NCBI GenBank assembly: GCA_021650915.1
Contig: CP091279.1
Span: 1,110,001-1,142,000, forward strand
Direction: 5' to 3'
Origin: Candidatus Brocadia sp.
GTDB taxonomy: Bacteria; Planctomycetota; Brocadiia; Brocadiales; Brocadiaceae
DNA: 32,000 bases
A program made the translations under genes and the position numbers. Below are positions 7,176-29,151 of this stretch, piece after piece; position 1 is the first letter of the stretch; each line of letters starts with the position of its first letter. The notes beneath the pieces are model-generated. The model was not told where the DNA came from and ran no database searches. It saw only the letters and a program-made list of their open reading frames with translations.

Positions 7176-7368
7176 GTGGTTTTATCGATGAAACGGAAAT
7201 AGCTCATAGAAAATTTTCTATAATGCAACGGTTATTCTTTCAGTAAACCGTAATGGTCTTTTTTGTTCGGTCTTTTCTTACGTCACAACTTATTTTGAGC
7301 AGTTGTTTATTCCCGCTCCCCAGAAATTATACGCATTGAGTTTATACTCTGGCAAAGACACAATCATT

Positions 7369-8678: not shown

Positions 8679-8713
8679 CCGCGTAAAGTACCTTATCCGT
8701 TTCAGGAGTGCTC

Positions 8714-9965: not shown

Positions 9966-12371
9966 ATGAAGAGAAAAGAGCCACGTCATATTCTTCTGGT
10001 GGAAGCCTATGAAGGTTGTATCGGGTATCTTTCTGACGATCCGGATGAAAGGAAATCCCTGCAAGGACTCGGTCTGCCGGTCGAAGAGATTGCAGAACGA
10101 CTTGATTGCCGGATTACTCTCCTGTGCTGGGACACCTGGTATCGCTATGAAGAAAAAGAAACCTCGCTGCCAACACCGGCGACACGACCAGTATTACAAC
10201 CCGATTTCGGCCAACCGTCCGCTGTCTATACCTCCGCAAGGGTGAGACGGGTTCCCATTCCCGCGCGAGACCCCGTTTACTGCCTTCCCTTTGATGTCAA
10301 GGGTTTCAGCCCCCGCTCGCATGGACTCATGAATGATAGCGGGTTGCTTTTTTTCGCCTCATACTGTTTAAGCAAGGAAATTCAGGCGCTTTACCGCACA
10401 GACCCCTTTCAGTCCATCATCGTTCCCCTGTGGGGTGGACTGGGATATGTTTCCCAGATGGCAAAGGCTAGCGTGGTTCCTCACGCAGTCAATGTGCCTT
10501 TCGTCGTTGTCGTTACGGATAAATCCGTTAACCGTCAGATGGCGAATCAGGAAGGAACCTGGACCCGTCATGCAGTTATCTTACGTCAGATGGAAGATGT
10601 CTCGCTTGCTTTGGCCGATATGACCCTGGTTTTCGGACCCAGAGGGAAGGAATTTGCCGTTGCGGGCAGGCTGCCAGAGTCACATCCTCCGGTTTGCGCA
10701 CCCCGCTGGATTGAAGATTCACTGCTCGACAAAATCGCCCGTGCATCAGAACAACCCGCGGATACTCACCGGCCGTTACAATTCTTTCTCTATGAGCCTC
10801 AACAGGCATCGTCAGGAGCGCTGACCGCCCTGGACGCCGTCAACCTCTTGGCAAGTAAAGGAACGCGTTTTGATCTGCCGGTAATCAGCGCCGGACCACC
10901 TATGGTCTTTGCCCCCATGAAACCGAGAGAGTTCACTGATTACTGGTCGTCTCGCGGATTCGCCCGCGAACTCGTCCGTGAACGTCAATGGGAATGGAAG
11001 AGAGAATATCCCCACCTTAACCAGGTTTTCCCCGTGCGTCTTTATCCAAGCTTTTTCGATTATCTTCCCAATGCTTGGGCTGAACTCGCCCGGGGTTCTC
11101 TGGTCCTTCTTTCACCAGCGGCCGCTGAGGGAATGGCGTTCGGAGAAAATATTCCCCGGGAAATCCTCATTCAGGGAGACCCGGCGCCAGAGAAAGTGGC
11201 AGATTGTTTGGAAAAAATCGCAGGCACCGACGTCAAAAAGCTCGACGAGATCAGACGGGAGTTGTGTTTACGGGTTGTCCGGTCACATCGCGGAGAGGAG
11301 CGGCAACGACTTATCAACGATACTTCCGTAGCCCTTGAACAACTTTTACAATCCCCTCCAAAACCACAAGACCTGTCGCGGATAGCCACCCTGTTTTTTG
11401 ATCGTCGTATACCACTTCGAACGCTCGCACAGACAGACAACCCCCCTCCCATGCCTGAACCGGGACCGGGCACAAAGAAAGGAACACTATCCGTCGTTGT
11501 TACGTGCTACGAAATGGGTTCTCTGATTCGTGAAACCATGGAAAGTGTCTGGACATCAGAGCGTCAGCCCGATGAAGTGCTGCTTATCGATGATGGCTCA
11601 TACGGAGACGAAACCCTCACGCATATTCAGGAACTCCAAAGGCATGCCGCTGAGAAAAATCTTCCCCTTCAGGTTATCCGGCAGAGGAACCAGGGGTTGG
11701 CTTCCGCCAGAAACACCGGACTCAGTGCAGCACACGGGGAATTCATTTCTTTTCTTGATGGCGACGATATCATCGAATCCCCGTTCTACCGGCTAGCGCT
11801 TCAGATTCTTGAAAGGTACCCTCGTTTGGGTGGGGTTGCTGCATGGGCCACCATCTTCGGCACGGAGATTCCCGATGGTTTCTGGAATGCCCCGCAGCCG
11901 GAATTCCCTTTTCTGTTCATTGAGAACAGCATAGTTGTTCCCTGCCTGACCCGTACCGAACTCTTGCGCAACCTCGGCGGTTACGATACCCGCCAACGGT
12001 ATAATTACGAAGATTGGGAGTTAGGCATACGCATGCTCTCTTCTGGTTGGTCGATTGTTACGATCCCTATGCATCTTCTCCGTTACCGGATCCGTACCCA
12101 GTCCCTCTACCGAAGCATGACTGAGGTGCAAAACCAAATTATGAGGGAACTTTTGTTGAGTACGCACCGGGAAACGGTTTCCAAATTTGCCGTTGAAATC
12201 GCTATGCAATTGGAAAATCTTTGGAAGACGTCCGTTTATTCCAATTCAGTTTCTTTACCCCCTGCCCAAAGCCAGAAGAGTGACACTTCTTTTCAGAAAA
12301 TGCTTGCGAAGGCATTGAAGAAATTTCTTTCACGGTTATTCTCCTACAGAGAGGATTCATCTCTTGTATGA
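9966..12371 (+). CDS. Two-domain glycosyltransferase: N-terminal GT4-like (GT-B) + C-terminal GT2
   Basis: The N-terminal half is homologous to the GT4 half of the next gene: PLWGGLGYVSQ vs PLGGIGTYVTH; LRQMEDVSLALADMTLV vs KRLEDYSIASADALLC; PSFFDYLPNAWAELARGS vs PSRWENFPNTCVEAMSSG, giving DX7E in place of EX7E. The C-terminal GT2 shows VVVTCYE..LLIDDGS..ARNTG..FLDGDDI..YEDWELGIR. Its ATG lies 1 nt after the wzt stop. Confidence 0.8.
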   Translation: MKRKEPRHILLVEAYEGCIGYLSDDPDERKSLQGLGLPVEEIAERLDCRITLLCWDTWYRYEEKETSLPTPATRPVLQPDFGQPSAVYTSARVRRVPIPARDPVYCLPFDVKGFSPRSHGLMNDSGLLFFASYCLSKEIQALYRTDPFQSIIVPLWGGLGYVSQMAKASVVPHAVNVPFVVVVTDKSVNRQMANQEGTWTRHAVILRQMEDVSLALADMTLVFGPRGKEFAVAGRLPESHPPVCAPRWIEDSLLDKIARASEQPADTHRPLQFFLYEPQQASSGALTALDAVNLLASKGTRFDLPVISAGPPMVFAPMKPREFTDYWSSRGFARELVRERQWEWKREYPHLNQVFPVRLYPSFFDYLPNAWAELARGSLVLLSPAAAEGMAFGENIPREILIQGDPAPEKVADCLEKIAGTDVKKLDEIRRELCLRVVRSHRGEERQRLINDTSVALEQLLQSPPKPQDLSRIATLFFDRRIPLRTLAQTDNPPPMPEPGPGTKKGTLSVVVTCYEMGSLIRETMESVWTSERQPDEVLLIDDGSYGDETLTHIQELQRHAAEKNLPLQVIRQRNQGLASARNTGLSAAHGEFISFLDGDDIIESPFYRLALQILERYPRLGGVAAWATIFGTEIPDGFWNAPQPEFPFLFIENSIVVPCLTRTELLRNLGGYDTRQRYNYEDWELGIRMLSSGWSIVTIPMHLLRYRIRTQSLYRSMTEVQNQIMRELLLSTHRETVSKFAVEIAMQLENLWKTSVYSNSVSLPPAQSQKSDTSFQKMLAKALKKFLSRLFSYREDSSLV

Positions 12372-14665
12372 AACACTTGATTATTTGCCCTGAATATCCA
12401 CCCGCACCAATACCACTGGGGGGAATCGGTACTTATGTAACTCATATTTCAAAGCTGCTTGCTGAAAGTGGAGAAACCGTACACGTAATTGGCCAACTTT
12501 GGAAAGGGGCAGAGAGAAGAATTGAAGAAAAGTGTCATGGAAGGTTGATTATTCATCGCGTCCGTCTCGACGGTGGGAAATCATTTTCGGGACGGAAATT
12601 GAGTTCTGCCAGGAAGGCCGGAGCAGAGGAAGGTCTTCTTGCATCGAGTTTCCCCCCTCAATATTTCTCCTGGCAGGCCAGTCTCCTCGCTGAAAGCCTT
12701 ATTGAGCAGGAAGGAATAGATTTAATCGAGGCGCAGGATTATGAGGCGCCATTGTATTACTTACAACTCCGACGCGCCCTGGGGTTAGGACCAAAAAGAC
12801 GCCCGCCCTGTATCATCCATTTACACTCTCCCACGGAAATTATTATCCGATACAATGATTGGGATATTGGACGTCCCTATTTAATGACAGCAAAACGGCT
12901 TGAGGATTATAGCATTGCGTCTGCCGATGCGCTGCTTTGCCCGAGTCGTTATCTGGCTCGCCAGGCAACAACTCATTATGGATTGAATGAGGGTTGTATT
13001 CAGGTTATTCCCCTGCCAATTGGCAACATCCCTATGCTCGAACGAGATAAAGACATATGGGAGCATGGAACGATTTGTTACGTGGGGCGGCTTGAACGAC
13101 GCAAGGGAGTAATTGAATGGATTGATGCCGCAGTTGATGCCGCACCTGCATATCCGTCAGCACGTTTCGAATTTATAGGGGCTAATATTCTCGGAACAGA
13201 TACTCTGCGCGGAGAAAAGGTTGTGGAGCGCCGCATTCCGGATGAACTGAAGTCGAGATTTCACTTTCGTGGGCAGCAAAATCATTCGACTCTCCTGCAA
13301 TTCCTGGCAGGCGCCCGCATAGCTGTTGTTCCATCACGCTGGGAAAACTTCCCCAATACCTGTGTGGAGGCCATGTCTTCAGGGCTTCCTGTCATTGCGT
13401 CGCGTGAGGGTGGAATGGTAGAGATGATCGAGGATGGACGAACAGGTTGGCTAGCCGACAAGGCGGGAAGTGTTGGACTTAGAGATGCCCTCAGGCGCGC
13501 ACTCGGCACACCATCGGGGCACCTTGCCAAGATGGGACGCGAAGCTTCGATGTCCATTCGTCAGATGTGCGATAACAAGAAGGTCTTGGAAAGTCACTTG
13601 AACTTTCGTCGTCTGATTGTTAATCAGGGAGCAAAACGCTCCTTGCATTTACCAGTAAATTTATCGTGGACAAAAAGGGCCGTTTTCGATGAATCGCCAC
13701 GCCGAACAACACAAAATAAATGCGAAAAAGGGATTGCAATCGTAGTTACTTGTTTCAATACGGGACAATTTCTCGACAGTAGTTTGCAGAGCATTAGACA
13801 ACAGACTCAACAGCCAGCGGCGGTGATTGTTGTGGATGACAAATCGACCGAAGGGCAAACTTTAAAAGCTCTGCGTAAGTCGCAGCAGGACGGATGGCAA
13901 ATCATTCAGAAAAAAAATGGGGATCTCGTACCAGCCAAGAATACTGGCATTGAAACAATTCTTCGTTCTGAACCAAATATCCTTGGTTTTGCGTTTCTCA
14001 ATGCAGGGGATCAATTGCAGCCTGGTTTTGTTGCGACCTGTGAATCGGTGTTGCAGCATTGTTCGGAAGTTGGACTTGTTTCCTGCTGGGCTCATTATTC
14101 CGGAATCAAAAATGACCTCTGGATCAGACCATGTCCCGGCTTTCCCTATCAATGGCTGACAAACGAGGCTGTTCCTTTCAGCATTGTACGGGCGGAGGCA
14201 CTCCGTGAGGCTGGCAATTTTCGTATAATCATGAGTCATGGATACGACAATTGGGATCTTTTCAATGCAGTAATGGCAGCCGGATGGATTGCGGTAACCA
14301 TACCTGCGATACTGGGAGATCATCGAGTTGTGGAAGATTCCGCGCTGCTTATGGCTCGTGTCCCCGCCTTTGGAAAAATGCGGAGAGAAATTCTTGAAAG
14401 ATTTCCTGATCTCATCGCTCGTGATGCGAAGGATATCGTTTTCCTCATAGAGTCCTCTATTACACAATCGCTGTGCGAAGAACTTTTTACACTCCGGAGG
14501 GAGCGCACAACGGCGAGAACGATGCTCAGCACCTCTCGACAATCAGTCGTGCGGATTTTGAAAAAGTTGAAAAAGAGAGTACTTCAGCGTACGCCAGTCT
14601 GGATGTCTAATTTTATTTCCCGTATAACAGCCCAATCCGAACGAGTTGGAAAAGAAATACGGTAG
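12368..14665 (+). CDS. Two-domain glycosyltransferase: N-terminal GT4 + C-terminal GT2-like domain
   Basis: GT4 motifs: GGIGTYV, and the EX7E motif ENFPNTCVEAMSSGLPVIAS. The C-terminal GT2-like domain has IAIVVTCFN..VIVVDDKST..AKNTG, but the DXD position reads FLNAGDQ. It overlaps the upstream gene by 4 nt (ATGA). Confidence 0.85.
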   Translation: MKHLIICPEYPPAPIPLGGIGTYVTHISKLLAESGETVHVIGQLWKGAERRIEEKCHGRLIIHRVRLDGGKSFSGRKLSSARKAGAEEGLLASSFPPQYFSWQASLLAESLIEQEGIDLIEAQDYEAPLYYLQLRRALGLGPKRRPPCIIHLHSPTEIIIRYNDWDIGRPYLMTAKRLEDYSIASADALLCPSRYLARQATTHYGLNEGCIQVIPLPIGNIPMLERDKDIWEHGTICYVGRLERRKGVIEWIDAAVDAAPAYPSARFEFIGANILGTDTLRGEKVVERRIPDELKSRFHFRGQQNHSTLLQFLAGARIAVVPSRWENFPNTCVEAMSSGLPVIASREGGMVEMIEDGRTGWLADKAGSVGLRDALRRALGTPSGHLAKMGREASMSIRQMCDNKKVLESHLNFRRLIVNQGAKRSLHLPVNLSWTKRAVFDESPRRTTQNKCEKGIAIVVTCFNTGQFLDSSLQSIRQQTQQPAAVIVVDDKSTEGQTLKALRKSQQDGWQIIQKKNGDLVPAKNTGIETILRSEPNILGFAFLNAGDQLQPGFVATCESVLQHCSEVGLVSCWAHYSGIKNDLWIRPCPGFPYQWLTNEAVPFSIVRAEALREAGNFRIIMSHGYDNWDLFNAVMAAGWIAVTIPAILGDHRVVEDSALLMARVPAFGKMRREILERFPDLIARDAKDIVFLIESSITQSLCEELFTLRRERTTARTMLSTSRQSVVRILKKLKKRVLQRTPVWMSNFISRITAQSERVGKEIR

Positions 14666-14690: not shown

Positions 14691-14767
14691 ACAGTGTGAA
14701 AAAAACATTTTTGCCGAAAATGTCAAAATATTTTTTATTAGACACTAACAGAGAAGACTTGACAGAG

Positions 14768-15709
14768 ATGAATATACTCATATCAGCTATCATATGCACG
14801 CATAATCGTGCTGGGTATTTGCAGAAGGCAATCCAAAGTTTGATGGATCAACGTACCCCCACAAATAAATATGAAATTGTCGTGGTAGACAATTGTTCAA
14901 CGGATTCCACAAAGAAAGTGGTTGACCAATTTTCAGCCAAGGGCAATGTAAGATACATTTTTGAACCCACTTTAGGCCTTTCGTATGCAAGAAATACCGG
15001 CTGGCGTAGTGCACGGGGCAAATATGTTGCTTACCTTGATGATGATGCCATTGCTTGTCCTGTTTGGCTAGACAAAATTTTAGAAGCGTTTGAAACGGTA
15101 ACGCCGCGACCTGGGTGTGTGGGAGGAAGAGTAACACCCATATGGGAGGCTTCCCGGCCTGAGTGGCTGTCGGATTGGCTTTTACACGGCCTTACTATTA
15201 TAGACTGGTCAGACATGCCCCATATCCTGACTAATCTTTCTGAAGAATGGCTCGTTGGCGCCAATATCGCCTTTCCGGTTGAAATTCTTGAGCGTGTTGG
15301 CGGATTCACGCCAAACCTTGACCGGGCAGGTAATAACCTTTTATCAAGTGGTGATGTATTCCTTGAAAATCAAATAAAAAACATGGGATATTCCTGTTTT
15401 TATCATCCGGACATTACTATCGGACATCACATATTTGAATCGCGTCTGAGTCAGTCATGGTTCATTCGGAGATATTATTGGCAGGGCGTTTCTGATGCGG
15501 TGATACACCTGCTTCAGGAAAGGCCTTCGATGCTAAAACGACTTCGTTTCGCTTACTCTCAGGCAAAAATCCTCTTACAATCTCCAGGAAAGTTAAAGAC
15601 CCTTATATTACCTACAAATAACCCTGAGCGGTTTACACAAAAATGTTTTACTCTTATAATATTGGGACATATTTACGGCGTGTTAAGGTTTGTGAGACCA
15701 TGGCAATAA
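14768..15709 (+). CDS. GT2 family glycosyltransferase
   Basis: ISAIICTHNRAGYL..VVVDNCSTD..ARNTG..YLDDDA. I prefer ATG 14768 over the track's GTG 14696. Confidence 0.8.
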   Translation: MNILISAIICTHNRAGYLQKAIQSLMDQRTPTNKYEIVVVDNCSTDSTKKVVDQFSAKGNVRYIFEPTLGLSYARNTGWRSARGKYVAYLDDDAIACPVWLDKILEAFETVTPRPGCVGGRVTPIWEASRPEWLSDWLLHGLTIIDWSDMPHILTNLSEEWLVGANIAFPVEILERVGGFTPNLDRAGNNLLSSGDVFLENQIKNMGYSCFYHPDITIGHHIFESRLSQSWFIRRYYWQGVSDAVIHLLQERPSMLKRLRFAYSQAKILLQSPGKLKTLILPTNNPERFTQKCFTLIILGHIYGVLRFVRPWQ

Positions 15710-16824
15710 ATATACATCTCATCCGAACCCAACGGCCCCACTGGGGAAAATATTCTGGTATAAATCAGTTTTTGAACTATGTCGATCAGGATAAATATCA
15801 TATAAATATTTATACTGCCTCAGATAACGACGAGGATTTTCCGGTGCGCAACAAAACGATACGCAGGTGGCTTCGGTGCGCTGTACAAAGAAAGGGTATG
15901 CAATATTATAAACTCAGCGACCTGACGGCTGAGATTCGTGCGCTCCGGAAATGCTTATACAAAAAGGCAGATATCGTTCACTACATGGATGGGGAACATT
16001 CAGCTCAGTATTTGCCATGGTTATGTAAACTACCCAGGAAGATGCGGCCTAAGATCGTGGCCACGTATCATCAACCTCCGGAACTCCTGAATTCACTTAC
16101 TAATAAAAAGGTCATTTCTAAGCTCGATCACGTTACGGTTGTATCTCCCGAACAGACATCCTATTTCCATGGGTTATTACCCCCTGATAAAATTACCGTG
16201 ATTTTACATGGTATAAATGTTGATTTCTTCCGGCCGGGAAGTACCCCAAAAACAGGAAAGGTGTTCAGGTGTATTACCGTTGGACACTGGTTAAGAGATT
16301 TCAAGACTATCCGGGAGGTCGCTGAGAAATTGGTGGAATATAAAGACATAGAATTTCATATAGTGACATCAAAACTCACCGGTCCCAGGCAAACTGGACT
16401 GGAAGGCTTAACAAACGTTATACTCTATAGAGATACCCTTGACGATGCAGGATTACTAGCGCAGTACCAGCAAGCGGACCTACTCTTTTTACCTTTGTTG
16501 CAGTCAACTGCAAACAACGCACTCCTTGAAGGGATTGCCTGTGGATTACCCGTTGTATCCACGTATTTGCCATCGGTAAAGGCATATCTGCCAGGTAAGG
16601 AAGCTATTTTAATAAAAGACAACGATCCAAAACAATTGGCAGATGCAATATTACATTTAGCGCATAATCCGTGGGACCAACGAAATATGGCGCAAGAGGC
16701 TCGCAAGAGGGCTGAAGAGCTGGATTGGCGTAATATCGCTCCACACTATGAAGCCGTTTATTCAAAACTAATAAGTAACTGCTGTCCAACACAGAGAAAT
16801 ACTGTTATAGGTAATGGGCAATAA
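15700..16824 (+). CDS. GT4 family glycosyltransferase
   Basis: The C-terminal half reads ..ADLLFLPLLQSTANNALLEGIACGLPVVST.. (an EX7E-type region), and the length is right for GT-B. ATG 15700 overlaps the upstream stop (15707-15709). Confidence 0.8.
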   Translation: MAINIHLIRTQRPHWGKYSGINQFLNYVDQDKYHINIYTASDNDEDFPVRNKTIRRWLRCAVQRKGMQYYKLSDLTAEIRALRKCLYKKADIVHYMDGEHSAQYLPWLCKLPRKMRPKIVATYHQPPELLNSLTNKKVISKLDHVTVVSPEQTSYFHGLLPPDKITVILHGINVDFFRPGSTPKTGKVFRCITVGHWLRDFKTIREVAEKLVEYKDIEFHIVTSKLTGPRQTGLEGLTNVILYRDTLDDAGLLAQYQQADLLFLPLLQSTANNALLEGIACGLPVVSTYLPSVKAYLPGKEAILIKDNDPKQLADAILHLAHNPWDQRNMAQEARKRAEELDWRNIAPHYEAVYSKLISNCCPTQRNTVIGNGQ

Positions 16825-17530
16825 ACAACATGCGAAGGAGCAGAAAATGCTAATGGAAAGGCTAATCACAGATAATCCACAATTCCATTCTTATAAAGGT
16901 ACTTTTACAAGTTGGGCCATTAACCCCAATACTTTGAACTTTCTCTATAGCATGCTGACTCCAGGCATGTCAACCCTCGAGACGGGTTGCGGACAAACCA
17001 CCGTTGTCTTTTCTATTGCTCGTACGAAACATATTTGTATCACACCGGATCAGGGAGAAGCTGAACGAGTAGACCAATATTGTACGAAATTAGGTCTTGA
17101 GAAAAATATAACTTTCGTAATTGATAGTTCAGATGCAGCCCTTCCACAGGATGGACTAATACCTTCGGAATTAGATCATGTTTTCATTGATGGTGCACAT
17201 CGCTTCCCTATAGCGATCATTGACTGGTATTACACCGTACGCAAGCTAAAGCTGGGCGGTATTGTAAGCGTGGATGATTTCAAAATACCATCAGTGAAAA
17301 TATTATACGATTTTTTGTGTACTGAAGAAGAATGGGAATTAATACGGGTTATGCACAATACGGCATTCTTCAAAAAATTGCGAGAACCAATGAATATAAA
17401 CGATTGGAGCGGACAGAAAATCAATTTATCATATCAAACCAGTGCGAGAGGTTTCGGAAAAAAAGGTTTTATCCGTAAGTTGATACTTCCTCAGTTCGAA
17501 CGAATATTAAAGGGTAAAAACCATGGATAA
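16814..17530 (+). CDS. Class I SAM-dependent methyltransferase (Methyltransf_24-like)
   Basis: Motif I LETGCGQTTVVF, and later HVFIDGAHRFPIAIIDW. An alternative start at ATG 16847 is preceded by AAGGAG (16836-16841). Its stop overlaps the radical-SAM ATG (ATGGATAA at 17523-17530). Confidence 0.75.
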   Translation: MGNKQHAKEQKMLMERLITDNPQFHSYKGTFTSWAINPNTLNFLYSMLTPGMSTLETGCGQTTVVFSIARTKHICITPDQGEAERVDQYCTKLGLEKNITFVIDSSDAALPQDGLIPSELDHVFIDGAHRFPIAIIDWYYTVRKLKLGGIVSVDDFKIPSVKILYDFLCTEEEWELIRVMHNTAFFKKLREPMNINDWSGQKINLSYQTSARGFGKKGFIRKLILPQFERILKGKNHG

Positions 17531-18587
17531 AAACAATCGCTTGTTTTGTTCAAAGCCATTTACGTGGTTCGAAATTACTCATTTAAATAAAATTGGAGAG
17601 GTATTTATGTGTTGTCCAGCTTGGCTGGATACATCCATAGGAAATCTACAAGATCAATCAGTTCAAGAGATATGGAATGGTAAAAAGGCACAGGAAATAC
17701 GGCGCTCGATCCTGGATGGATCATTTACCTATTGTAATCACTCCAGATGTGCTTTTCTGCAAACAGTATCTGGGCCAGTTGCAAAAGTCGAAGACGTTAA
17801 AGATGAAGATTTACATGCCGTAATAGAAAAGGAACTTACGATCTTGCCGTATGGTCCCCGGCAAATCATTTGTACCTATGACAAATCTTGTAACCTATCC
17901 TGTCCGTCCTGCCGTACAAAATTAATTATTGAACGCAGAAATAAGAAACAGATATTGAAAATTCAAGATAAAATTCAAAATGAAGCCATTCAAGATGCTT
18001 ACTATTTGCATATTACGGGTTCTGGAGACCCTTTTGGCAGTCCATTTTTTAGGAAATGGTTGCAAACGATGAAGAGAGAGGATATACCAAGGGTTAAAAT
18101 CATACATCTACAAACAAATGCCCAGTTATGGACACCAAAAATGTGGGGTACCATAGCGAAAGACATACAACACCTGATAAAAAATGCAGATATTTCAATT
18201 GATGCAGCAAATCCTGAAACATATGCAATAAATCGCAGAGGCGGGAGTTTTGAAAGACTCCTCAATAATCTCGAATTTATTAGTACGTTACGTAAGAACG
18301 GTCCCCTGGAATGGGTGGGTATAAGCATGGTCGTTCAAGAAAACAATTTTCGAGAGATGCCTGATTTTGTGCGTCTCGGTAAGCGTTTTCATTTCGATAC
18401 CGTCTATTTCAGCCAATTGGTAAATTATGGAACATACTCTGAAGAAGAATTTAGAAATCGCGCAATTCATTTTCCTACTCACTCAAGATATTCAGAGTTT
18501 CTTGGTATCCTGAAGGATGAAATCTTTCATGACCCATTAGTCCACCTAGGAAATCTAACGGAAACGATGCGCCGTAGTGATAAGTAA
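17523..18587 (+). CDS. Radical SAM enzyme with N-terminal twitch/SPASM-like cysteine motif
   Basis: CX3CX2C is present as SCNLSCPSC, followed by ITGSGDPFGSPFF (GGE-like). Upstream of the core, C-x15-G-x4-C (CSKPFTWFEITHLNKIGEVFMCC) matches the CX9-15GX4C half-motif of SPASM/twitch domains, followed by YCNHSRC. Confidence 0.8.
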   Translation: MDKNNRLFCSKPFTWFEITHLNKIGEVFMCCPAWLDTSIGNLQDQSVQEIWNGKKAQEIRRSILDGSFTYCNHSRCAFLQTVSGPVAKVEDVKDEDLHAVIEKELTILPYGPRQIICTYDKSCNLSCPSCRTKLIIERRNKKQILKIQDKIQNEAIQDAYYLHITGSGDPFGSPFFRKWLQTMKREDIPRVKIIHLQTNAQLWTPKMWGTIAKDIQHLIKNADISIDAANPETYAINRRGGSFERLLNNLEFISTLRKNGPLEWVGISMVVQENNFREMPDFVRLGKRFHFDTVYFSQLVNYGTYSEEEFRNRAIHFPTHSRYSEFLGILKDEIFHDPLVHLGNLTETMRRSDK

Positions 18588-18732: not shown

Positions 18733-20502
18733 GTGGTAACAGAAGGATACGCAACCCCAGACTGGGAAGTAGTTGATTACCAAATGTATTGTTTAGATCC
18801 GGAAGTAATTGATCGTCAAACCAATACTGGCTTACTTCTAAGAGGACCCAAACCTCAACATTTAGAAAAGGGCAAATATTTTGTATGTATTGGTGCCGCG
18901 CAAACTTTCGGACGTTTTTGTGAAAAACCATATCCAACGCTATTGCAAGAAAGACTAAATGTAGTAACATTAAACCTGGGATACGGAGGCGCTGGACCAT
19001 CCTTTTTCTCGAAAGATAACGATAGACTGCTAAAATACATAAATAATGCAAGGTTTGCTATTATACAGGTTATGTCAGGAAGATCTGAAAGCAACTCATT
19101 ATTCGAGAGTAGAGGTTTGGGATTTTATACGAGAATATCTGATGGTACTTCAATTGGATGCGATGATGCCTTTAGAGAATTGCTAAAAGAGAATGACAGA
19201 GATTACATAAAAAAAATCGTTGCGGAAACAAGGCATAATTGGGTAAATAACTATAAAGAACTCTTAGAAAAGATTACAATTCCTAAAATATTGTTTTGGT
19301 TTTCGGTAAGGAAGCCACACTACAGAGAAAAATACGATGATGTCTCTAGTTTATTTGGGGAATTTCCCCAATTAGTTAATTTCCACTTGATTAATCAAAT
19401 AAAAAAGTATTGCAATGAATATGTTGAATGTATAACCAGGCAAGGGTTGCCACACTTACTGGTGAATAGATTTACCGGTGAACCAATTACGGTAGAAGAC
19501 CCATGGGGTGGAAGCTGGAGCAAGAATTGGTACTACCCTTCACCAGGGATGCACAGAGAAGCTGCAACTGCACTTGAACAGGTATGTAAAAAATACCTAA
19601 ATCCAATTGAATTCCATCAGCAATCGAAACCGTCCTTTGTCTCGGGTAAGTGGTTGTTTAAAAAAACCATCATTGACGAAAAATACATTTACTTAAGAAA
19701 TTTATGCTGCTTTCATTTGAAAAACGTTGCTCTTGATCTGGGTATCTTAGGTGGACATACAGATTATTGCAGGTTTATTATTCTTGGAAGAGCAAGATCG
19801 GGTTCAAACTTTTTACGTGGTTTACTCAACTCGCACCAGCAAATTATTACCTTTGGGGAATTATTCAGGGCGTACGATTCCATCGGGTGGGAGTTCCCGG
19901 ATTATGATCAATATTTACAGTCTCGAAGTTTAAGGTCATTTATGCAAAATGACCCGGGCAAATTTTTGGAGGAAAGAGTATTTAAGAAGTTTCCAAAGCG
20001 AATATTGGCGGTGGGATTTAAACTATTTTATTATCATGCCCAGGATGATTCCCGTAAAATTATTTGGCCTTACTTAAAAGACCAAAAAGACATAAAAATA
20101 ATTCACCTTCAGAGGAATAACACGCTCAGGGTGCTTCTCTCTCTTAAGAAGGCATTTCAAACCGATAAATGGACTAATATTACCGGTGAAGAAGAAACGT
20201 CTTCAATTTTACTTGATTATGAAGAGTGTCTCCGAGAATTTACTTGGTCACAAGAAGTTAAAAAGCAGTATGGTGACTATTTCGAGGGTCATCACAAGAT
20301 AGATGTTTCCTATGAAAATTTAAGTAATTATTGTGAGGATGAAATAAAACGTATCCAGGCATTCTTAGGTGTTCAGTATGAAATTGTTAAACCTTCTACC
20401 TTTAAACAATCTAACCAACCTCTTTCTAAATCAATTTCAAACTATTTCGAGTTAAAGGAAAAATTTAAAGGCACTTCGTGGGAAAAATTTTTTGAAGAGT
20501 AA
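18733..20502 (+). CDS. Two-domain protein: N-terminal uncharacterised domain (possibly DUF6473-like) + C-terminal PAPS-type sulfotransferase
   Basis: The C-terminal half has FIILGRARSGSNFLRGLLN (5'-PSB-type loop) and IIHLQRNNTLRVLLSLKKA (3'-PB-type R..N......S). The N-terminal half is ..LLLRGPKPQHLEKGKYFVCIGAAQTFGRF..LNLGYGGAGPSFF..IIQVMSGRSESN... It has a GTG start; the frame opens at 18691 with no ATG. Confidence 0.7.
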   Translation: MVTEGYATPDWEVVDYQMYCLDPEVIDRQTNTGLLLRGPKPQHLEKGKYFVCIGAAQTFGRFCEKPYPTLLQERLNVVTLNLGYGGAGPSFFSKDNDRLLKYINNARFAIIQVMSGRSESNSLFESRGLGFYTRISDGTSIGCDDAFRELLKENDRDYIKKIVAETRHNWVNNYKELLEKITIPKILFWFSVRKPHYREKYDDVSSLFGEFPQLVNFHLINQIKKYCNEYVECITRQGLPHLLVNRFTGEPITVEDPWGGSWSKNWYYPSPGMHREAATALEQVCKKYLNPIEFHQQSKPSFVSGKWLFKKTIIDEKYIYLRNLCCFHLKNVALDLGILGGHTDYCRFIILGRARSGSNFLRGLLNSHQQIITFGELFRAYDSIGWEFPDYDQYLQSRSLRSFMQNDPGKFLEERVFKKFPKRILAVGFKLFYYHAQDDSRKIIWPYLKDQKDIKIIHLQRNNTLRVLLSLKKAFQTDKWTNITGEEETSSILLDYEECLREFTWSQEVKKQYGDYFEGHHKIDVSYENLSNYCEDEIKRIQAFLGVQYEIVKPSTFKQSNQPLSKSISNYFELKEKFKGTSWEKFFEE

Positions 20503-20517
20503 TAAAACGGGATTCAC

Positions 20518-23500
20518 ATGAAGGTATCTATCATTATACCAGCTTATAACGCAGCAGGAACCCTGGCTGAGACACTTGAATCCGTCCGTGCCCAGACCTT
20601 ATCAGGTTGGGAGGCAATTGTTATCGATGATGGTTCAACCGATACGACAGCAGCAATTGCCGCGAATTTTGCAGAAAAAGATCCCAGAATCCGTATCGTG
20701 AGTCAACCGAAGGGCGGGGTATCTGCCGCCAGGAACACCGGCATTGCAAAGGCCCGTTACGACTGGCTCCTCTTCCTTGATGCCGACGACTGGCTCCTGC
20801 CACTCCACCTGGAAAAAATAACGCATGTGCTTATTGCAGACGCTACTCTTGACGCCGTCCACTGTGGCTGGGCTAATATTGCACCTGATGGAACCCACTT
20901 AGATGCCGGGTTTTGCTTTCAACTGGGAGACCTCTTTGGTGAATTCGCGAATCGATGCGCTTTTCCGATACACGCTTGTGTCGTCCGTAAGTCAGTTGTT
21001 GAGTCAATCGGTGGCTATGACTCATCACTTATTACCTGTGAAGATTGGGATCTTTGGCAGCGAGTTGCGCGCACGGGCGCCCGCTTTGGCACGATTCAGG
21101 AAGTGCTTTCGCTTTATCGTACACGGCCGGGATCAGCATCAAGAAACAGTTTTCAATTACTCGCCGATGGCATTCTTGTGATTGAGAGAGGGCATGCACC
21201 GGATGCACGGGTACCAAACCCGCGTCCAGAACATGCAAATGGTCAACCGGTGGCGGAAGTTCCCGCTGCTATATTAGAGCAGCTCTGCTGGTGCGCCGGC
21301 ATCTTCCTTGGTGTTGGAAAAGATGCCAGACCTTTGCTTGGCGCAGTGAGAAACATTCGCGATGCCTTGGTCTACGGCAATGCACGCAATATCGCTGATT
21401 ATATCTTAATCTCCTTATCAATCCATGGAGGTCAGCCGCTCGCCGCATGCTACAAGATCTGGCATGGCATTGAGCAGCGTGTCGACGAGTTTCTGCTTGC
21501 CATCGAGGAACAGTCTCAGACTTTTGATTTGGCGAACCGCATTGGCACGGTTCTCAAACGTCTGATCCTGGCACCTCCTGCAACTCCACGACCGCTGACG
21601 ATTGGGAATCTGCATGCGATTCGCGTCGAGGTCACCGAGCCTATAAACGATATTGTCCCTTCCATTCAAGTCAATCGACTCATTTGCAGTATTGAGTTGG
21701 AAGGAACCCATATCGGAACTATCGAACTCCCCGTATGTGACGGCATCGTTCCTGGTCATGTACTCGCCGATGCTATCGCAGCTGACTTCTCTTGGGTAAT
21801 TTTCAAACGTTATTTTGAATGTACAGTACGCCCCAATCTCAGCATGAAACGGAATCAGCTAGGCTTTTCGATTTGGCGGAAAAACCTGTGCCTTGTCGAA
21901 GCGATTCCTGGAAACGAGCACACCGTCGAACAGCAACTCTACGAAAAGGTTGGCTGGACCGTTTTCCTGCAGGAGGTCTTTGGATGCCAGAACCTGCCGT
22001 TGGACGGTTTTTATCAGACGAAGCTGGAGATTCCTTCGATAAAGCATGGTTGGAAGTCATTGATTAAGAAGTTCTGTGCGCGTCATATGAAATCGCATGA
22101 GCGTATTTCCAAACGGAAAGTTAAACCACTGCATTCCGTACCTGGAAACTGGCTTATGGTTGAGATCGCTGAAAGGCTTTCCGATGTAGAAGTTTCTGGT
22201 AAAGAGCTCAATATTGTGTTAACGGTGGGAGGAGTTGTCCTGAATGTCATAATTATTCCTGTTATCGGGAATATCGTTCACCGGAAAGAATTACGAGTGG
22301 CAATCGCCACCACATGCGGACTTGAATTATGTCGTGCTGCGGTTCGTGAGGGTTTGCTTGGCAGACCAATCACAGATAAGCCATTATCACTCCAGAAACG
22401 TCTCGAGGCTAAGTCCCTGGTTATGCAACGTCACGGCGATAGCTCATTATTGAAGGGAGATACTGATATCGTTTTTGTGCCTGGATCTGCCCGCGCCCTT
22501 GACAATTTTTTGTCTTTCGATAATCGCAGTTTAATCCTCGGACGGCATGCATGCGGAAGGATCGGGACCAGCGCCTCACGGCGCGCTATGCTGCCGGCAG
22601 CAACTACCCCAGAACTTATCGATGCCTCTCGAGTGGCTGGTGAACCCGTAATTCAAATTCCAGCACCAGGCGAACAGCCAAGGCATGTGGCCTATGTTCC
22701 AGAACTTGTCTGGTTCCCATCTCCTGATAACCGGACATCTGTTCCAGAATCAAGAGTTTTAAAGAAGACGCATTCTGCAGCCTCTCATACCCAAAACCAG
22801 ATTATAATTACGGGGAACGTTGTTACTGATCGACTTCCGATCCTCATGTATCATCGCGTTGCGCTAACTGCCAAACCTTCGGGTGATCGCTATCGGATAA
22901 CGCCAGAGTCCTTCGAGGAACAACTCAGCTATCTGCGTAATGCCGGGTACTACAGTATCAACCTTGAAGACTGGCATAACGCTATGGAAAAGAACGAACC
23001 GCTCCCGGGCAGAGCAGTAATGATTACCTTTGATGACGGGTATCTCGATTTTCTTACCTGCGCATGGCCACTCTTGAGAAAGTATGGTTTTTTTGCTACA
23101 GTTTTTATTGTGGCAGATCTTGTCGGAAAGACAAATAAATGGGATGAAATTTATGGAGAGGAGATACCATTGATGGGATGGAAAGACATCCGGCGGCTTC
23201 AGGATGATGGGGTTCTGTTTGGCTCGCATTCGGCTAGCCACCCCTATCTCACGGTGCTTCCACCGGAACAGATCGTACGCGAAGGCGCACGGTCCAGAGC
23301 AATCCTTGGCCGTGAATTGGGGATAACGGTTCCGGCCTTTGCATATCCGTACGGAGATGTTGATCCTGTTGTTCAGCACCTTATCGGGGCGTGTGGTTAC
23401 CTCTACGGTCTGTCTTGTCGTGAGGACCTCAGCACCTACCGTGATCCTCTTTTAGCGCTGCCGCGGATTGAAGTGTCAGGCGCCGATAGTTTACAGCATT

Positions 23501-23553
23501 TTATTACAAAGCTTGGTGTTTTGCAATCTCCGGATATCAATACGACAAATTAA
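20518..23553 (+). CDS. 1011-aa fusion enzyme: GT2 glycosyltransferase - unassigned ~500-aa middle - CE4 (NodB-type) polysaccharide deacetylase
   Basis: GT2 motifs: IIIPAYNAA, IDDGSTD, ARNTG, FLDADDW, CEDWDLWQR. CE4 motifs: LPILMYHRV, ITFDDGY, FGSHSASHPYL, AFAYPYGD. No long hydrophobic stretch noticed. Confidence 0.85.
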   Translation: MKVSIIIPAYNAAGTLAETLESVRAQTLSGWEAIVIDDGSTDTTAAIAANFAEKDPRIRIVSQPKGGVSAARNTGIAKARYDWLLFLDADDWLLPLHLEKITHVLIADATLDAVHCGWANIAPDGTHLDAGFCFQLGDLFGEFANRCAFPIHACVVRKSVVESIGGYDSSLITCEDWDLWQRVARTGARFGTIQEVLSLYRTRPGSASRNSFQLLADGILVIERGHAPDARVPNPRPEHANGQPVAEVPAAILEQLCWCAGIFLGVGKDARPLLGAVRNIRDALVYGNARNIADYILISLSIHGGQPLAACYKIWHGIEQRVDEFLLAIEEQSQTFDLANRIGTVLKRLILAPPATPRPLTIGNLHAIRVEVTEPINDIVPSIQVNRLICSIELEGTHIGTIELPVCDGIVPGHVLADAIAADFSWVIFKRYFECTVRPNLSMKRNQLGFSIWRKNLCLVEAIPGNEHTVEQQLYEKVGWTVFLQEVFGCQNLPLDGFYQTKLEIPSIKHGWKSLIKKFCARHMKSHERISKRKVKPLHSVPGNWLMVEIAERLSDVEVSGKELNIVLTVGGVVLNVIIIPVIGNIVHRKELRVAIATTCGLELCRAAVREGLLGRPITDKPLSLQKRLEAKSLVMQRHGDSSLLKGDTDIVFVPGSARALDNFLSFDNRSLILGRHACGRIGTSASRRAMLPAATTPELIDASRVAGEPVIQIPAPGEQPRHVAYVPELVWFPSPDNRTSVPESRVLKKTHSAASHTQNQIIITGNVVTDRLPILMYHRVALTAKPSGDRYRITPESFEEQLSYLRNAGYYSINLEDWHNAMEKNEPLPGRAVMITFDDGYLDFLTCAWPLLRKYGFFATVFIVADLVGKTNKWDEIYGEEIPLMGWKDIRRLQDDGVLFGSHSASHPYLTVLPPEQIVREGARSRAILGRELGITVPAFAYPYGDVDPVVQHLIGACGYLYGLSCREDLSTYRDPLLALPRIEVSGADSLQHFITKLGVLQSPDINTTN

Positions 23554-23593
23554 TTTTCTGCGATATTGATCAAAATAATATCTACGGCAATGT

Positions 23594-26500
23594 ATGAATA
23601 ACCAGTTTGCATCCCCTATAAAGGTATCTGTCATCATACCTGCCCACAACGCCGCGGAAACAATCACCGAAACGCTTGAGTCCCTTCTTGCTCAAACCCA
23701 TCATGCCTGGGAAGCAATTGTCGTTGACGACGGTTCCCTTGATGAAACGAAGGCCATAGCCACAGGTTTTGCTGAAAGAGAACATCGAATTCGCGTTCTT
23801 TTTCAGGCACAGGGCGGGGTATGCGCAGCCCGGAACGCTGGCATTGCAATAGCTCGCTTTGACTGGCTGCTTTTCCTTGATGCGGATGACTGGCTTGCCC
23901 CTGCATATCTTGAGAAAATGACGACCCGTCTCATTTCAGATTCCCGCCTTGATGGTGTATACTGCATTGCGGCACGTATCTCTCCTGAAGGAAAGCTCTA
24001 TGAAGAATTTTTGCTTCCCTCTGGTGATCTGTTTCATGCATTAGCGCGTTACGCAGCATTTCCCATTCATACCTGCGTTGTCCGCCGCTCGTTAGTCGAG
24101 GCCGCCGGAGGCTTTGATACATCGCTCCTGGCATGTGAGGACTGGGATCTCTGGCAACGGATTGTCCGCACGGGCGCTCGCTTTGATGCAGTCCGTGAAG
24201 TGCTCGCATTCTACCGAATGAAACCTAGATCTGCCTCTGTCAATGCCTTCCAGATGTTCAGAGATGGTCTTCGCGTGCTCAAGCAGGGACACTCCCCTGA
24301 CGCACGTGTCAAGAACCCGCATCCAGCCTATGCAAACGGGTTGCCGTCAGATCACCTTCAAAACCAGATATTTTATTTTTTAAGCTGGTGTGCCGGCCTC
24401 TTAATCAGTTACGACAATGATGCCAGGGTACTGCTCGATTCAGTCAGGGAGTACCGTTATCCGGAACTTAATCCGCATGGCGTTGCACAAAACATTTATC
24501 GGGCGACCATTCTGCCCACGGGCCTAACCTTATCTGCCTGGGGCAAATATTGGCAAAAGGTTGAGATTCGTATTCGTGAATTTCTTCTTGCTCTTGAATT
24601 ACAAGCACAGGCTTCAGGGTTGGCTTATCGCGCCAGGACAGCTCTGGAGCGTATGATAGTGGAACACCCATCGGCTTCCCGTCCTCTGACCGTGGGAGCC
24701 ACACACGCAATCCGGATTGAGGTTACCGAGATAATTCCAGACATTTTTCTTTCAGCGAAGGTCGAGCGTCTTTATTGCACCGTCGAGTTTGATGGATCTG
24801 GCATGGGAACGATAGAACTTCCCGTTTGTGATGGACTAGTTCCCAGATCTGTTTTGTCTGATGCCATCGCAGCCGAATTTGCCTGGCCAATTCTCGGACG
24901 ATTCTTCGGGCGTACTATTTACCCTCACCTTCGCATTAAGCGTGAGCGGACAGGATTTTCTATCTGGCGAGAAGCACTGCGCCTTACGAGAACACTTTGC
25001 GAGGATGAACACGTTATCAGACAAAAGATGCATGAACAAATTGGCTGGACAGTTTTTTTGCAGGAGATCTGGGGGCAGCAGAACCAGCCGCTCGATAGTT
25101 TTTATACCGTTGGCGGTAAGGTCTCTTTGAAGAAAAATGATTGGAAGCTATCTTTCCTGAAGTATTACAGACGTTTCTTCAAAACAGGACCAGCATCATG
25201 GCGTGCATTCAACAAAGGCTGGATGATACTTGATGTCAGCGATAAGTTTCATGATATGAAAGTAGAGGGGCAGGAGATTCATGTTGTGCTTACGGTGGGT
25301 GGCGTTGTGCTTGGAACGGTTAACATCCCCGTCAAGAAGAACATCATACGTACCCGGGAACTGCGTGCAGCGCTCACGAAAGCGAGTGGCTTTGAATTAT
25401 GCCGGGCATCTGTCCGTGAGGGCTTGCTGGGTAAGTCATTGGCAGATAATATGGCATCACTTCGGGATCGCCTGTCAGCGGTAAAAAAATCACCGGTGCC
25501 GCATAAGGAATACGACTCACTTTTGAGGACGTGTCGTGATGTCGCCTTTGTGCCAGGAACAGACTTCACCCTTGATCGTGTATTGTCAGCAGGAAATTAT
25601 GGTGTACTTTTTGGGAGGCACCTATATGGCGAGATTGGAACAAGCGCCTCCCGGCGCGCAACGCTACCATCGTCAGTTATTCCTGAACTTATCGATGCTT
25701 CTTCAACAGCTGGTGAGCCGGTAATCCAAGCTTTAGCACCAGAAGAATCTTCCAAACGCGTGCTTTATGTTCCAGAACTATTCTGGTCTCCGACACGAAA
25801 TATGCAGATATCTTCTCCAGAATCACGTGAATCTGAAACGTTCCAGGCAAAGCCTTCGGCGTTTAACAGCCACGACACAGACACAACACAAGCCTTGCGG
25901 CGTTGTAGTCCTCCACACTATAGCGGTAACAAACAAAACATTACGACCCACCAGCTCCCCATCATCAGATACCATCGTGTTGCCCCAGACGGCTTGCCCT
26001 CAGCAGTTCGCTACCGGGTAACGCCTGACGCATTTGAAGAGCAAATCCGTTACCTCCATGATAATGGATACTACAGTATCCGTCTGAAAGACTGGCACAC
26101 TGCTATGGAAAAGAAGAGACCGCTTCCTGGTAAAGCAGTAATGATCACTTTTGATGACGGTTATTTCGATTTTCTCACCTATGCATGGCCCATTTTGAGA
26201 CGATATGGTTTTCACGCCACCGTCTTTCTTGTGGCGGACTATGTTGGGCGATCGGACAGTTGGGATAACGTTTATGGAGAGGAAATACCACTCCTTGGCT
26301 GGAGTGAGATCAGACAACTTCGGGATATGGGGGTTGAGTTTGGCTCCCATTCTGCTAGCCATCCTTATCTCACAGCGCTTTCACCAGAGAAGATCGTGCG
26401 TGAAGGAGCTCGCTCCAGAGCGATCCTGGGACGCGAACTTGGGATAACGATCAGGGCATTCGCATACCCCTACGGCGATGCGGATCATGTTGTTCAGCAT

Positions 26501-26665
26501 CTTATCGGAGCCTGCGGCTATGTTTATGGTTTGTCGGCCAAACAAGACCTGAGTAAGTTCCAAGATCCCCTGCTTGCGCTGCCTCGCATCGAGATTACCG
26601 GTTCCGACAAACTTCAGGACTTCATCGAAAAGCTCAACGTTCGACCCACTCAGGTTGTCAGCTAA
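23594..26665 (+). CDS. 1023-aa paralog of the preceding gene: GT2 - unassigned middle - CE4 deacetylase
   Basis: Collinear with 20518-23553 along its whole length (VIIPAHNAA, VDDGSLD, FLDADDW, CEDWDLWQR ... ITFDDGY, FGSHSASHPYL, AFAYPYGD). It starts 40 nt after the upstream stop. Confidence 0.85.
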   Translation: MNNQFASPIKVSVIIPAHNAAETITETLESLLAQTHHAWEAIVVDDGSLDETKAIATGFAEREHRIRVLFQAQGGVCAARNAGIAIARFDWLLFLDADDWLAPAYLEKMTTRLISDSRLDGVYCIAARISPEGKLYEEFLLPSGDLFHALARYAAFPIHTCVVRRSLVEAAGGFDTSLLACEDWDLWQRIVRTGARFDAVREVLAFYRMKPRSASVNAFQMFRDGLRVLKQGHSPDARVKNPHPAYANGLPSDHLQNQIFYFLSWCAGLLISYDNDARVLLDSVREYRYPELNPHGVAQNIYRATILPTGLTLSAWGKYWQKVEIRIREFLLALELQAQASGLAYRARTALERMIVEHPSASRPLTVGATHAIRIEVTEIIPDIFLSAKVERLYCTVEFDGSGMGTIELPVCDGLVPRSVLSDAIAAEFAWPILGRFFGRTIYPHLRIKRERTGFSIWREALRLTRTLCEDEHVIRQKMHEQIGWTVFLQEIWGQQNQPLDSFYTVGGKVSLKKNDWKLSFLKYYRRFFKTGPASWRAFNKGWMILDVSDKFHDMKVEGQEIHVVLTVGGVVLGTVNIPVKKNIIRTRELRAALTKASGFELCRASVREGLLGKSLADNMASLRDRLSAVKKSPVPHKEYDSLLRTCRDVAFVPGTDFTLDRVLSAGNYGVLFGRHLYGEIGTSASRRATLPSSVIPELIDASSTAGEPVIQALAPEESSKRVLYVPELFWSPTRNMQISSPESRESETFQAKPSAFNSHDTDTTQALRRCSPPHYSGNKQNITTHQLPIIRYHRVAPDGLPSAVRYRVTPDAFEEQIRYLHDNGYYSIRLKDWHTAMEKKRPLPGKAVMITFDDGYFDFLTYAWPILRRYGFHATVFLVADYVGRSDSWDNVYGEEIPLLGWSEIRQLRDMGVEFGSHSASHPYLTALSPEKIVREGARSRAILGRELGITIRAFAYPYGDADHVVQHLIGACGYVYGLSAKQDLSKFQDPLLALPRIEITGSDKLQDFIEKLNVRPTQVVS

Positions 26666-28212: not shown

Positions 28213-29151
28213 TTGCCAATAGTTAGTGTAATTATTCCAACACATAATCGTGCCGAATTGCTTTGCTCGGCAATTACCAGTGTATTAAATCAGACATTTC
28301 AGGATTTCGAGATCCTGGTGATCGACGATGCATCAACAGATAATACCCGGGAGGTTATCAGCAGATATCGCGATACAAGAATAAAATATATCCACCATGA
28401 AGTTAATAAAGGAGAAGCGGGATCAAGAAATACCGGGATACTACATTCACATGCTGAGTATATTGCGTTTTTGGATGACGATGATGAATGGTTACCAGAG
28501 AAGTTGCAGTTGCAAATTGACCTATTTAATTCCTGCCAGCAAGAGATTGGAGTTATATACACCGGCTATCTCAGGGTAGATTGGACAAAAAAGAAGATAT
28601 TGAAACAAACGGTTCCGATAAAACGAGGGTATATTTATAATGATATGTTTATTCAAAATTACGTCGGAATCCCGTCGACGATTATCTTAAGACGAAAATG
28701 TTTCGACTTGGTTGGCTTGTTTGACGGAAGTCTGCCTTATGGAACTGATTATGATATGTGGATTCGACTGGCAAAAGAATTTCATTTTGATTATATAAGA
28801 GAACCTCTGGTTAAGTATTGTGTACATCAGGAGAGAATTTCTTCTCATCTGGACGCGCGAATAAACGGACTAGAAATCCTTTTGAAAAGATATAACCATC
28901 TCTTTGCAGCAAATAGTAAAAGGCACAGCTATTATCATTCCCATATTGGAATGATGTACTGTTCCATTGGAAGCATTAAAAAAGGTCGTGAATTACTTTT
29001 AAAGGCGATAAAAATATATCCGCTTGGAATAAGAGGATATCTTTGTTTCGTGCTTTTCCTGTTAGGTAAAAACAATTTCAGGAGGGTGAAAAAAATCATA
29101 TATTTTTTACGTAGCACCGGGTTTTATTTTACACATCGTGATAGGCGCTAG
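28213..29151 (+). CDS. GT2 family glycosyltransferase (last gene of the operon)
   Basis: VSVIIPTHNRAELL..LVIDDASTDNT..SRNTG..FLDDDDEW. TTG start, with AAGGAG (28198-28203) 9 nt upstream. The C-terminal tail is hydrophobic. Confidence 0.8.
   Translation: MPIVSVIIPTHNRAELLCSAITSVLNQTFQDFEILVIDDASTDNTREVISRYRDTRIKYIHHEVNKGEAGSRNTGILHSHAEYIAFLDDDDEWLPEKLQLQIDLFNSCQQEIGVIYTGYLRVDWTKKKILKQTVPIKRGYIYNDMFIQNYVGIPSTIILRRKCFDLVGLFDGSLPYGTDYDMWIRLAKEFHFDYIREPLVKYCVHQERISSHLDARINGLEILLKRYNHLFAANSKRHSYYHSHIGMMYCSIGSIKKGRELLLKAIKIYPLGIRGYLCFVLFLLGKNNFRRVKKIIYFLRSTGFYFTHRDRR

Follow-up and report, generated by a model that had tools for sequence, protein, structure and literature searches.

The Glycan Locus and Its Genes

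The window analysed here, a stretch of 32,000 nucleotides (nt) from a genome of Candidatus Brocadia (contig CP091279.1, positions 1,110,001 to 1,142,000), contains a glycan locus in which an open reading frame (ORF) combining a DUF6473 domain with a sulfotransferase domain, of the type using 3'-phosphoadenosine 5'-phosphosulfate (PAPS), precedes two large proteins ending with CE4 de-N-acetylase domains (table 1). A preliminary description of this DNA had connected these two chemistries with those of NDST, the animal enzyme that deacetylates and then N-sulfates heparan sulfate. Judging from sequence and from comparison with characterised systems, we consider it rather probable that the sulfotransferase instead carries out an O-sulfation that is independent of CE4, and a heparan sulfate-like route of N-sulfation unlikely.

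The locus is of the Wzm/Wzt type, and the presence of Wzm together with a Wzt bearing the Wzt_C module, which is the mark of ABC export gated by a carbohydrate-binding module (CBM), confirms that the glycan depends upon an ABC transporter, as originally proposed. In characterised systems, the CBM of Wzt binds the terminal group of finished chains, and the locus resembles the CBM-gated O-antigen systems of Escherichia coli O9a and Klebsiella O4, O7, and O12 in having Wzm, Wzt with a C-terminal CBM, multidomain glycosyltransferases, and candidate terminal modifiers (PMC11231755). By analogy, the Wzt_C domain implies that export would be gated by a terminal group, for which the methyltransferase and the sulfotransferase are the candidate chain terminators; both are missing from some related loci that retain wzt. 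None of the tailoring proteins shows an obvious N-terminal signal, which would fit cytoplasmic action on a lipid-linked chain.

Table 1. Genes, domains, and motifs of the glycan locus (positions in the window; aa, amino acids; SAM, S-adenosylmethionine)
Feature	Position	Strand	Details
Wzm, ABC-2 permease	7303..8133	+	PF01061 E 4e-16; 5 hydrophobic segments
Wzt ATPase with Wzt_C carbohydrate-binding domain	8708..9964	+	PF00005, PF14524 E 4e-14
801-aa protein, ~500-aa N-terminus and GT2	9966..12371	+	
GT4 and GT2-like glycosyltransferase, conserved cassette core	12368..14665	+	Domain annotation, synteny
GT2, conserved cassette core	14696..15709	+	Domain annotation, synteny
GT4, conserved cassette core	15643..16824	+	Found in 15/17 cassettes
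Methyltransf_24 SAM methyltransferase	16814..17530	+	PF13578 E 6e-10; found in 16/17 cassettes
Twitch/SPASM radical-SAM enzyme	17523..18587	+	PF13186, PF04055; NF033640 score under cut-off
DUF6473-sulfotransferase fusion ORF, 589 aa	18733-20502	+	
DUF6473 domain	18748..19617	+	aa ~6-295; PF20078 E 2e-29; N-terminal to sulfotransferase
Stf0/Stam10-like PAPS sulfotransferase domain	19753..20502	+	aa ~341-589; PF13469 E 6e-11
GRARSGSNFL, 5'-PSB-like loop	19786-19815		aa 352-361
3'-PB-like motif	20104-20142		aa 458-470; R-x8-S pattern
GT2-X-CE4 fusion 1, 1011 aa	20518..23553	+	One CE4 domain, PF01522 E 7e-23
CE4 domain of fusion 1	~22834-23514		H778, D839/D840, H904, H908, R983
GT2-X-CE4 fusion 2, 1023 aa	23594..26665	+	One CE4 domain, PF01522 E 2e-26
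CE4 domain of fusion 2	~25955-26638		H794, D854/D855, H919, H923, R998
GT2, 451 aa	26729..28084	+	Likely ortholog directly 3' of sulfotransferase in Brocadia G030
GT2, 312 aa, final gene of run	28213..29151	+	

The Sulfotransferase and Its O-Sulfating Relatives

The PAPS-type sulfotransferase domain stands as first described, with both of its quoted motifs, the loop resembling a 5'-phosphosulfate-binding site (PSB) and the motif resembling a 3'-phosphate-binding site (PB). Its Arg-type PSB, Glu base, and R-x8-S 3'-PB motif are all features of Stf0-, Stam10-, and NodH-like enzymes, and R355, E376, and R461 are invariant across 124 homologs, while S470 is present in 123 of the 124. Most homologs are named "LPS sulfotransferase NodH" by JGI, and the 90% identity cluster of the protein includes KKO20501, a "Stf0 sulfotransferase" of Ca. 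Brocadia fulgida. The complete genome, of 4.05 Mb, has a 16S primer site specific for anammox bacteria, and we take the organism to be B. fulgida or a very near relative. In the search of the PDB with the single sequence, the sole match was 9VKI (E 3e-7); the profile of 124 sequences matched 9VKI with E 9e-18 and Stf0 with E 3e-5, and NDST was absent among its 58 matches (E up to 10), as it was from a second profile search.

The protein in 9VKI is Stam10, which is 84% identical to Sam10, an enzyme sulfating the C2 hydroxyl of fucose in the glycan saccharomicin, where eight amino sugars are also present (PMC13291958). Residues R13, S16, E34, R108, and S117, found to be important by mutagenesis of Stam10 (PMC13291958), align one to one with R355, S358, E376, R461, and S470, all of them fully or almost fully conserved. 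Hence, the PAPS-binding residues, on which the preliminary description had made its proposal depend, are present, and the enzyme looks intact and active from its sequence. Sam10 and Stam10, which act on an assembled oligosaccharide, are nevertheless stand-alone enzymes of a natural-product pathway with low identity to the Brocadia protein, in which S17 and H37 of Stam10 are replaced by Asn and Arg, respectively, so that the acceptor probably differs. The Arg-type PSB and the R-x8-S pattern are shared also with Stf0, the mycobacterial trehalose 2-O-sulfotransferase (1TEX), and with the rhizobial glycan O-sulfotransferases NodH and KpsS (PMC11625862), from which the enzyme differs in being fused to DUF6473 and in lying within a Wzm/Wzt locus. 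It is outside the Stf0 trehalose 2-sulfotransferase equivalog NF047724, scoring 19.1 bits versus the cut-off of 400.

The AlphaFold2 (AF2) model of the domain (pLDDT 92.2) has the sulfotransferase fold and comes closest in structure to Stf0 (Z 13.1, root-mean-square deviation [rmsd] 4.2, 197 residues aligned), tied with several O-sulfotransferases. The overall fold is shared with the NDST domain too (1NST, Z 10.8), and the Z-scores across sulfotransferases are close. NDST1, however, binds 3'-phosphoadenosine 5'-phosphate via K614 of its PSB (PMC10864358), in place of which the Brocadia enzyme has the invariant R355; Arg at this position is the Stf0 variant. As the closest characterised relatives are all O-sulfotransferases, the comparison makes sulfation of a sugar hydroxyl the likelier reaction. 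Thus O-sulfation, as well as the placing of a terminal cap, which had been put forward only as alternatives, become the likelier readings.

DUF6473, a Predicted Pseudo-Hydrolase

The domain fused to the sulfotransferase is named in no paper found by our literature search, and an Atlas search with it gave only leads below 0.9. Its AF2 model (pLDDT 93.7) shows an SGNH fold (Z 13.6, rmsd 3.5, 180 residues aligned), and its top structural matches (Foldseek, VIA) are all of the SGNH/GDSL type. The Ser-His-Asp triad of SGNH enzymes is not present: the position of the nucleophilic Ser is occupied by Ala (Ala56) in 111 of 113 homologs, and Tyr268 and Asn265 probably lie at those of His and Asp, in a register deduced from motif spacing. 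The model thus predicts an SGNH fold without catalytic serine, that is, a pseudo-hydrolase, which is probably no classical esterase and would probably function as a non-catalytic glycan-binding partner.

Could DUF6473 still be a deacylase of non-canonical type, exposing a hydroxyl or an amine, so that it would form with the sulfotransferase a unit for unmasking and then sulfating? The SGNH fold is common to carbohydrate acetyl-esterases, many polar residues are conserved in the domain (e.g., N81, R117, R167, R193, Y267, and Y268), and fusions with sulfotransferases recur in 31 of 120 DUF6473 hits, with either domain coming first and with sulfotransferases of distinct lineages. We nonetheless regard this possibility as very unlikely, in view of the substitutions in the triad and of the lack of DUF6473 in 16 of 33 loci of the sulfotransferase clade. 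None of the 120 DUF6473/sulfotransferase hits carries CE4. Another arrangement is seen in one locus (L237:8105-15400), where DUF6473 and an acyltransferase-3 gene come after four sulfotransferases in tandem.

The GT2-X-CE4 Fusions

Both CE4 de-N-acetylase domains were correctly recognised in the preliminary description. They form the C-terminal ~230 aa of proteins of ~1000 aa with an N-terminal GT2 domain and an intervening region, X, of ~500 aa; these GT2-X-CE4 fusions are tandem paralogs, 54% identical to each other. The position of the CE4 domains "immediately downstream" of the sulfotransferase has to be corrected, for 2.3 kb and 5.5 kb separate their starts from its stop. Both copies carry all the motifs of the IcaB/PplD type, namely the N-terminal catalytic His, the D-D pair, HxxxH, and the Arg near the C-terminus, as defined previously (PMC8807736), and their best PDB matches are among PplD, IcaB, and PgaB (6DQ3 and 4WCJ, with E 4e-24 and 1e-17). 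These proteins are circularly permuted CE4 de-N-acetylases having the same N-terminal catalytic His, D-H-H triad, and C-terminal Arg, but are surface-exposed (PMC8807736), whereas the Brocadia domains are fused to GT2 and apparently cytoplasmic.

GT2-X-CE4 fusions constitute a widespread family, which NCBI names trifunctional glycosyltransferase/methyltransferase/deacetylase. Indeed, 77 of 118 homologs have a NodS-like methyltransferase domain of ~230 aa inserted ahead of CE4, after X. The known function of NodS is to N-methylate the amine freed by NodB, and methylation would thus be the usual follow-up to deacetylation in this family. The window fusions share with the trifunctional proteins (GT2/class I SAM methyltransferase/deacetylase) the GT2-X-CE4 frame and 60-74% identity in CE4, yet differ from them in their tandem duplication and in lacking the NodS-like insert in both copies: the gap between X and CE4 is 43 and 59 aa versus ~275 aa in NodS-bearing homologs, and PF05401 is not matched. 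In none of the 118 homologs is a sulfotransferase part of the fusion.

The X region (~490 aa; window 21200-22700 and 24300-25770) has no Pfam or Atlas match; tests for a repeat inside it and for similarity to the N-terminal part of the 451-aa GT2 gave nothing significant. In one Brocadia genome, G026 (L050:2097-6268), the GT2-X-CE4 gene is interrupted and in pieces, with DUF6473 and the sulfotransferase intact.

Do the Sulfotransferase and the Deacetylase Travel Together?

Animal NDST1 (PMC10864358) resembles the Brocadia pair in having both chemistries near each other, a common sulfotransferase fold, and a metal deacetylase barrel of His-His-Asp type. The last is present in the window (D855, H919, and H923, with D854 and H794) as a general feature of CE4 that is not specific to NDST. 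In contrast with NDST1, which is one polypeptide, the deacetylase and the sulfotransferase are encoded here by separate ORFs, with no such fusion in any homolog; they are likely cytoplasmic and would act on a lipid-linked chain, and their genes have been gained and lost independently.

For the latter point, we have compared 33 sulfotransferase loci, de-duplicated and each flanked by 4 kb or more on either side; these are locus segments and interrelated. CE4 is present in 7 of them and DUF6473 in 17. These 17 DUF6473-positive cassettes include the methyltransferase in 16 cases, the radical-SAM enzyme in 16, the second GT4 in 15, and CE4 in 7, so that the conserved partners of the sulfotransferase are the methyltransferase, the twitch radical-SAM enzyme, DUF6473, and three glycosyltransferases. 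Gloeothece PCC 7424 and three further loci have the full cassette with no CE4 inside 10 kb, and the Pfam-annotated loci that lack CE4 include Gloeothece PCC 7424 and five others, in one of which a YdjC gene is found at a distance of ~10 kb. In Brocadia G030, the sulfotransferase is followed directly by the likely ortholog of the 451-aa GT2, with the CE4 gene missing at the syntenic position; this was the only genome in which CE4 was searched throughout, and its 510-contig draft, 96% complete, gave no CE4 profile match. Conversely, the 29 loci of CE4 fusions from outside the anammox bacteria contain neither this sulfotransferase clade nor DUF6473. On a fast tree, the presence of CE4 requires ~5 changes, no fewer than with shuffled labels. 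In the window itself, the GC content is 36-39% from the methyltransferase to the sulfotransferase and then 50% in the CE4 fusions, with a step at the junction. Hence, at the level of loci, the co-occurrence expected of an NDST-like pathway was not found, and the coupling originally suggested is not supported, since the sulfotransferase lacks CE4 in most related loci and the CE4 fusions lack the sulfotransferase in 29 of 29 non-anammox ones. The same sulfotransferase clade is present also in another cassette type, seen in Anabaena (L232) and in L238, where it lies behind wzm/wzt, a ScmC-like gene, and NTP_transf_5 genes, without DUF6473.

A convergent pair in which CE4 frees an amine and the neighbouring sulfotransferase N-sulfates it is quite unlikely on this evidence, although several observations are consistent with it. 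Intact CE4 and sulfotransferase lie in one co-oriented gene run without obvious signal peptides, and both fusions lack NodS, leaving the amine unclaimed. The catalytic base of hNST1 is also Glu, and in vitro an NST can receive its substrate from bacterial deacetylases (PMC13353177). Moreover, the NodS form was not found together with this sulfotransferase in the Brocadia loci. In evolutionary terms, this exclusion is a single event: in the tree of the radical-SAM gene, all sulfotransferase-minus loci fall in one clade (support 96/95), which argues for a single loss of the methyltransferase, DUF6473, and sulfotransferase, jointly absent in this anammox lineage, with CE4 kept. All four combinations do exist, as in L147, having both NodS and the sulfotransferase; Scalindua G064, having neither; G030; and G022/G024, where CE4 is fused to a different methyltransferase (L154 is also sulfotransferase-positive). 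Consequently, we have rejected the mutual exclusion of NodS and sulfotransferase as support for N-sulfation. The 10 of 17 cassettes without CE4 and the PSB Arg replacing Lys614 of NDST1 also argue against the pair.

The cassette invites another explanation, in which the sulfotransferase would act on a small intermediate, such as a cap unit or a nucleotide sugar modified by the radical-SAM enzyme and the methyltransferase, possibly to activate it, sulfate not being the final decoration. The tight block formed by the methyltransferase, radical-SAM enzyme, DUF6473, and sulfotransferase (16/17) would agree with this, as would the finding of an activation-type sulfotransferase, that of the olefin synthase 4GOX (Z 12.8), among the fold ties. 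However, Sam10 does not accept nucleotide sugars (PMC13291958), and the radical-SAM gene is retained in sulfotransferase-positive and sulfotransferase-negative loci alike, indicating that its chemistry is independent of sulfate; we consider this explanation quite improbable.

Several considerations do weigh against O-sulfation uncoupled from CE4. The enzyme shares little sequence identity with Stam10 or Stf0 and the Z-scores of the fold are close, so that structure does not fix the acceptor chemistry. The presence of CE4 in 7 of 17 cassettes is not negligible and shows that the modules frequently lie in one locus, while the nearest homologs of the sulfotransferase are often directly 5' of GT2-X-CE4; a deacetylase encoded elsewhere in a genome could supply the amine. 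Furthermore, N-sulfated polymers resembling glycosaminoglycans (GAGs) have been reported in Pontiella's extracellular polymeric substances, and sulfated GAG-like polymers in anammox and other granules (PMC10483923, PMC7356697).

Supply of PAPS

No genes for PAPS supply are seen among the annotated ORFs of the window, as noted from the beginning. The suggested search of the genome did find them: Sat and CysC are encoded elsewhere, with intact motifs, and PAPS can thus be made. This evidence needs to be qualified, for none of the genus's 16 genomes lacks CysC; we have therefore dropped the PAPS genes as evidence for this particular locus and consider them permissive only. A second cysC copy (L007, G000 922,608-923,029), intact in most Brocadia relatives, is broken by an internal stop and a frameshift. 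The sat gene (G000 3,164,507-3,167,685) adjoins the gene for a 558-aa flavoprotein, which we presume to be aprA from its resemblance, as a candidate label.

A Model for the Assembly of the Glycan

The intact-looking sulfotransferase, the supply of PAPS, and the ABC glycan exporter provide good support, as far as sequence can tell, for the sulfated glycan anticipated in the preliminary description. We propose that a lipid-linked surface glycan, destined for the O-antigen of lipopolysaccharide or for an S-layer or protein glycan, would be built in the cytoplasm and exported via Wzm/Wzt, the C-terminal module of Wzt probably checking its terminal group. The cassette of GT4, GT2, GT4, methyltransferase, radical-SAM enzyme, DUF6473, and sulfotransferase would make and tailor part of this glycan. 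Most likely, the sulfotransferase uses PAPS, produced by the housekeeping Sat and CysC, to sulfate a hydroxyl group of a sugar, either as a decoration on the side or as one element of the terminal cap, with DUF6473 probably binding the glycan beside it. The two GT2-X-CE4 proteins would be an accessory module of their own, adding an amino sugar and de-N-acetylating it; its amine is probably N-methylated by the NodS-like domain in most relatives and probably stays free in the window, where this domain is lacking. Such loci would then consist of three blocks: a core of three glycosyltransferases and the radical-SAM enzyme, an optional block for tailoring with methyl and sulfate groups, and an optional GT2-X-CE4 block. 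N-sulfation of an amine freed by either the NodS-less CE4 fusions or DUF6473, working as a serine-less deacylase, is on the whole unlikely.

A Second Sulfated-Glycan Locus and Other Features of the Region

The genome has a second locus for a sulfated glycan, of Wzx type, on the minus strand (L004:8076-19479; G000 1,870,075-1,881,478). It encodes a Wzx flippase, together with a stand-alone CE4 whose gene directly precedes a tandem of two Sulfotransfer_3 genes; further products are two alpha/beta hydrolases, a GT2, an additional sulfotransferase, and an amidotransferase resembling Asn synthase. The three sulfotransferases are of other types than that of the window, and the CE4 protein has the first motifs without a standard HxxxH match, so that it may be inactive or atypical. 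A NAD-dependent epimerase is also encoded in this second locus (L005:781-1953, minus strand); its N-terminus seems to resemble that of SqdB, the UDP-sulfoquinovose synthase, to which it may be related.

Within the window, the ~500-aa N-terminus of the 801-aa GT2 protein (9966-11480) has no Pfam match, yet is conserved among related loci. The spacer of 574 bp between wzm and wzt (8134-8707) contains several stretches resembling inverted repeats, possibly inserted elements. IS66 and DDE transposases border the glycan locus (4082-5776 and 29391-30986), a gene for a HepT-like toxin occupies 315-716, and counts of promoters and terminators in the window are at chance level. Just past the window end there is a glycosyltransferase-like cluster on the opposite strand (G000 1,146,127-1,156,834, L009).

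Significance

What emerges as new from this analysis is an ABC-exported, probably O-sulfated glycan with a previously undescribed conserved cassette of seven genes, found in Brocadia, in Gloeothece citriformis PCC 7424, which is a cyanobacterium, and in many bacteria not in culture. The predicted fold provides a first assignment for DUF6473, as an SGNH pseudo-hydrolase tied to sulfotransferases. If N-sulfation were true, the locus would represent the first N-sulfotransferase pathway to be defined in bacteria and a genetic source of the sulfated GAG-like polymers of anammox granules, and a bacterial N-sulfotransferase would matter for heparin bioengineering; the evidence, however, points to O-sulfation. 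The locus constitutes a testable candidate source of sulfated polymers.

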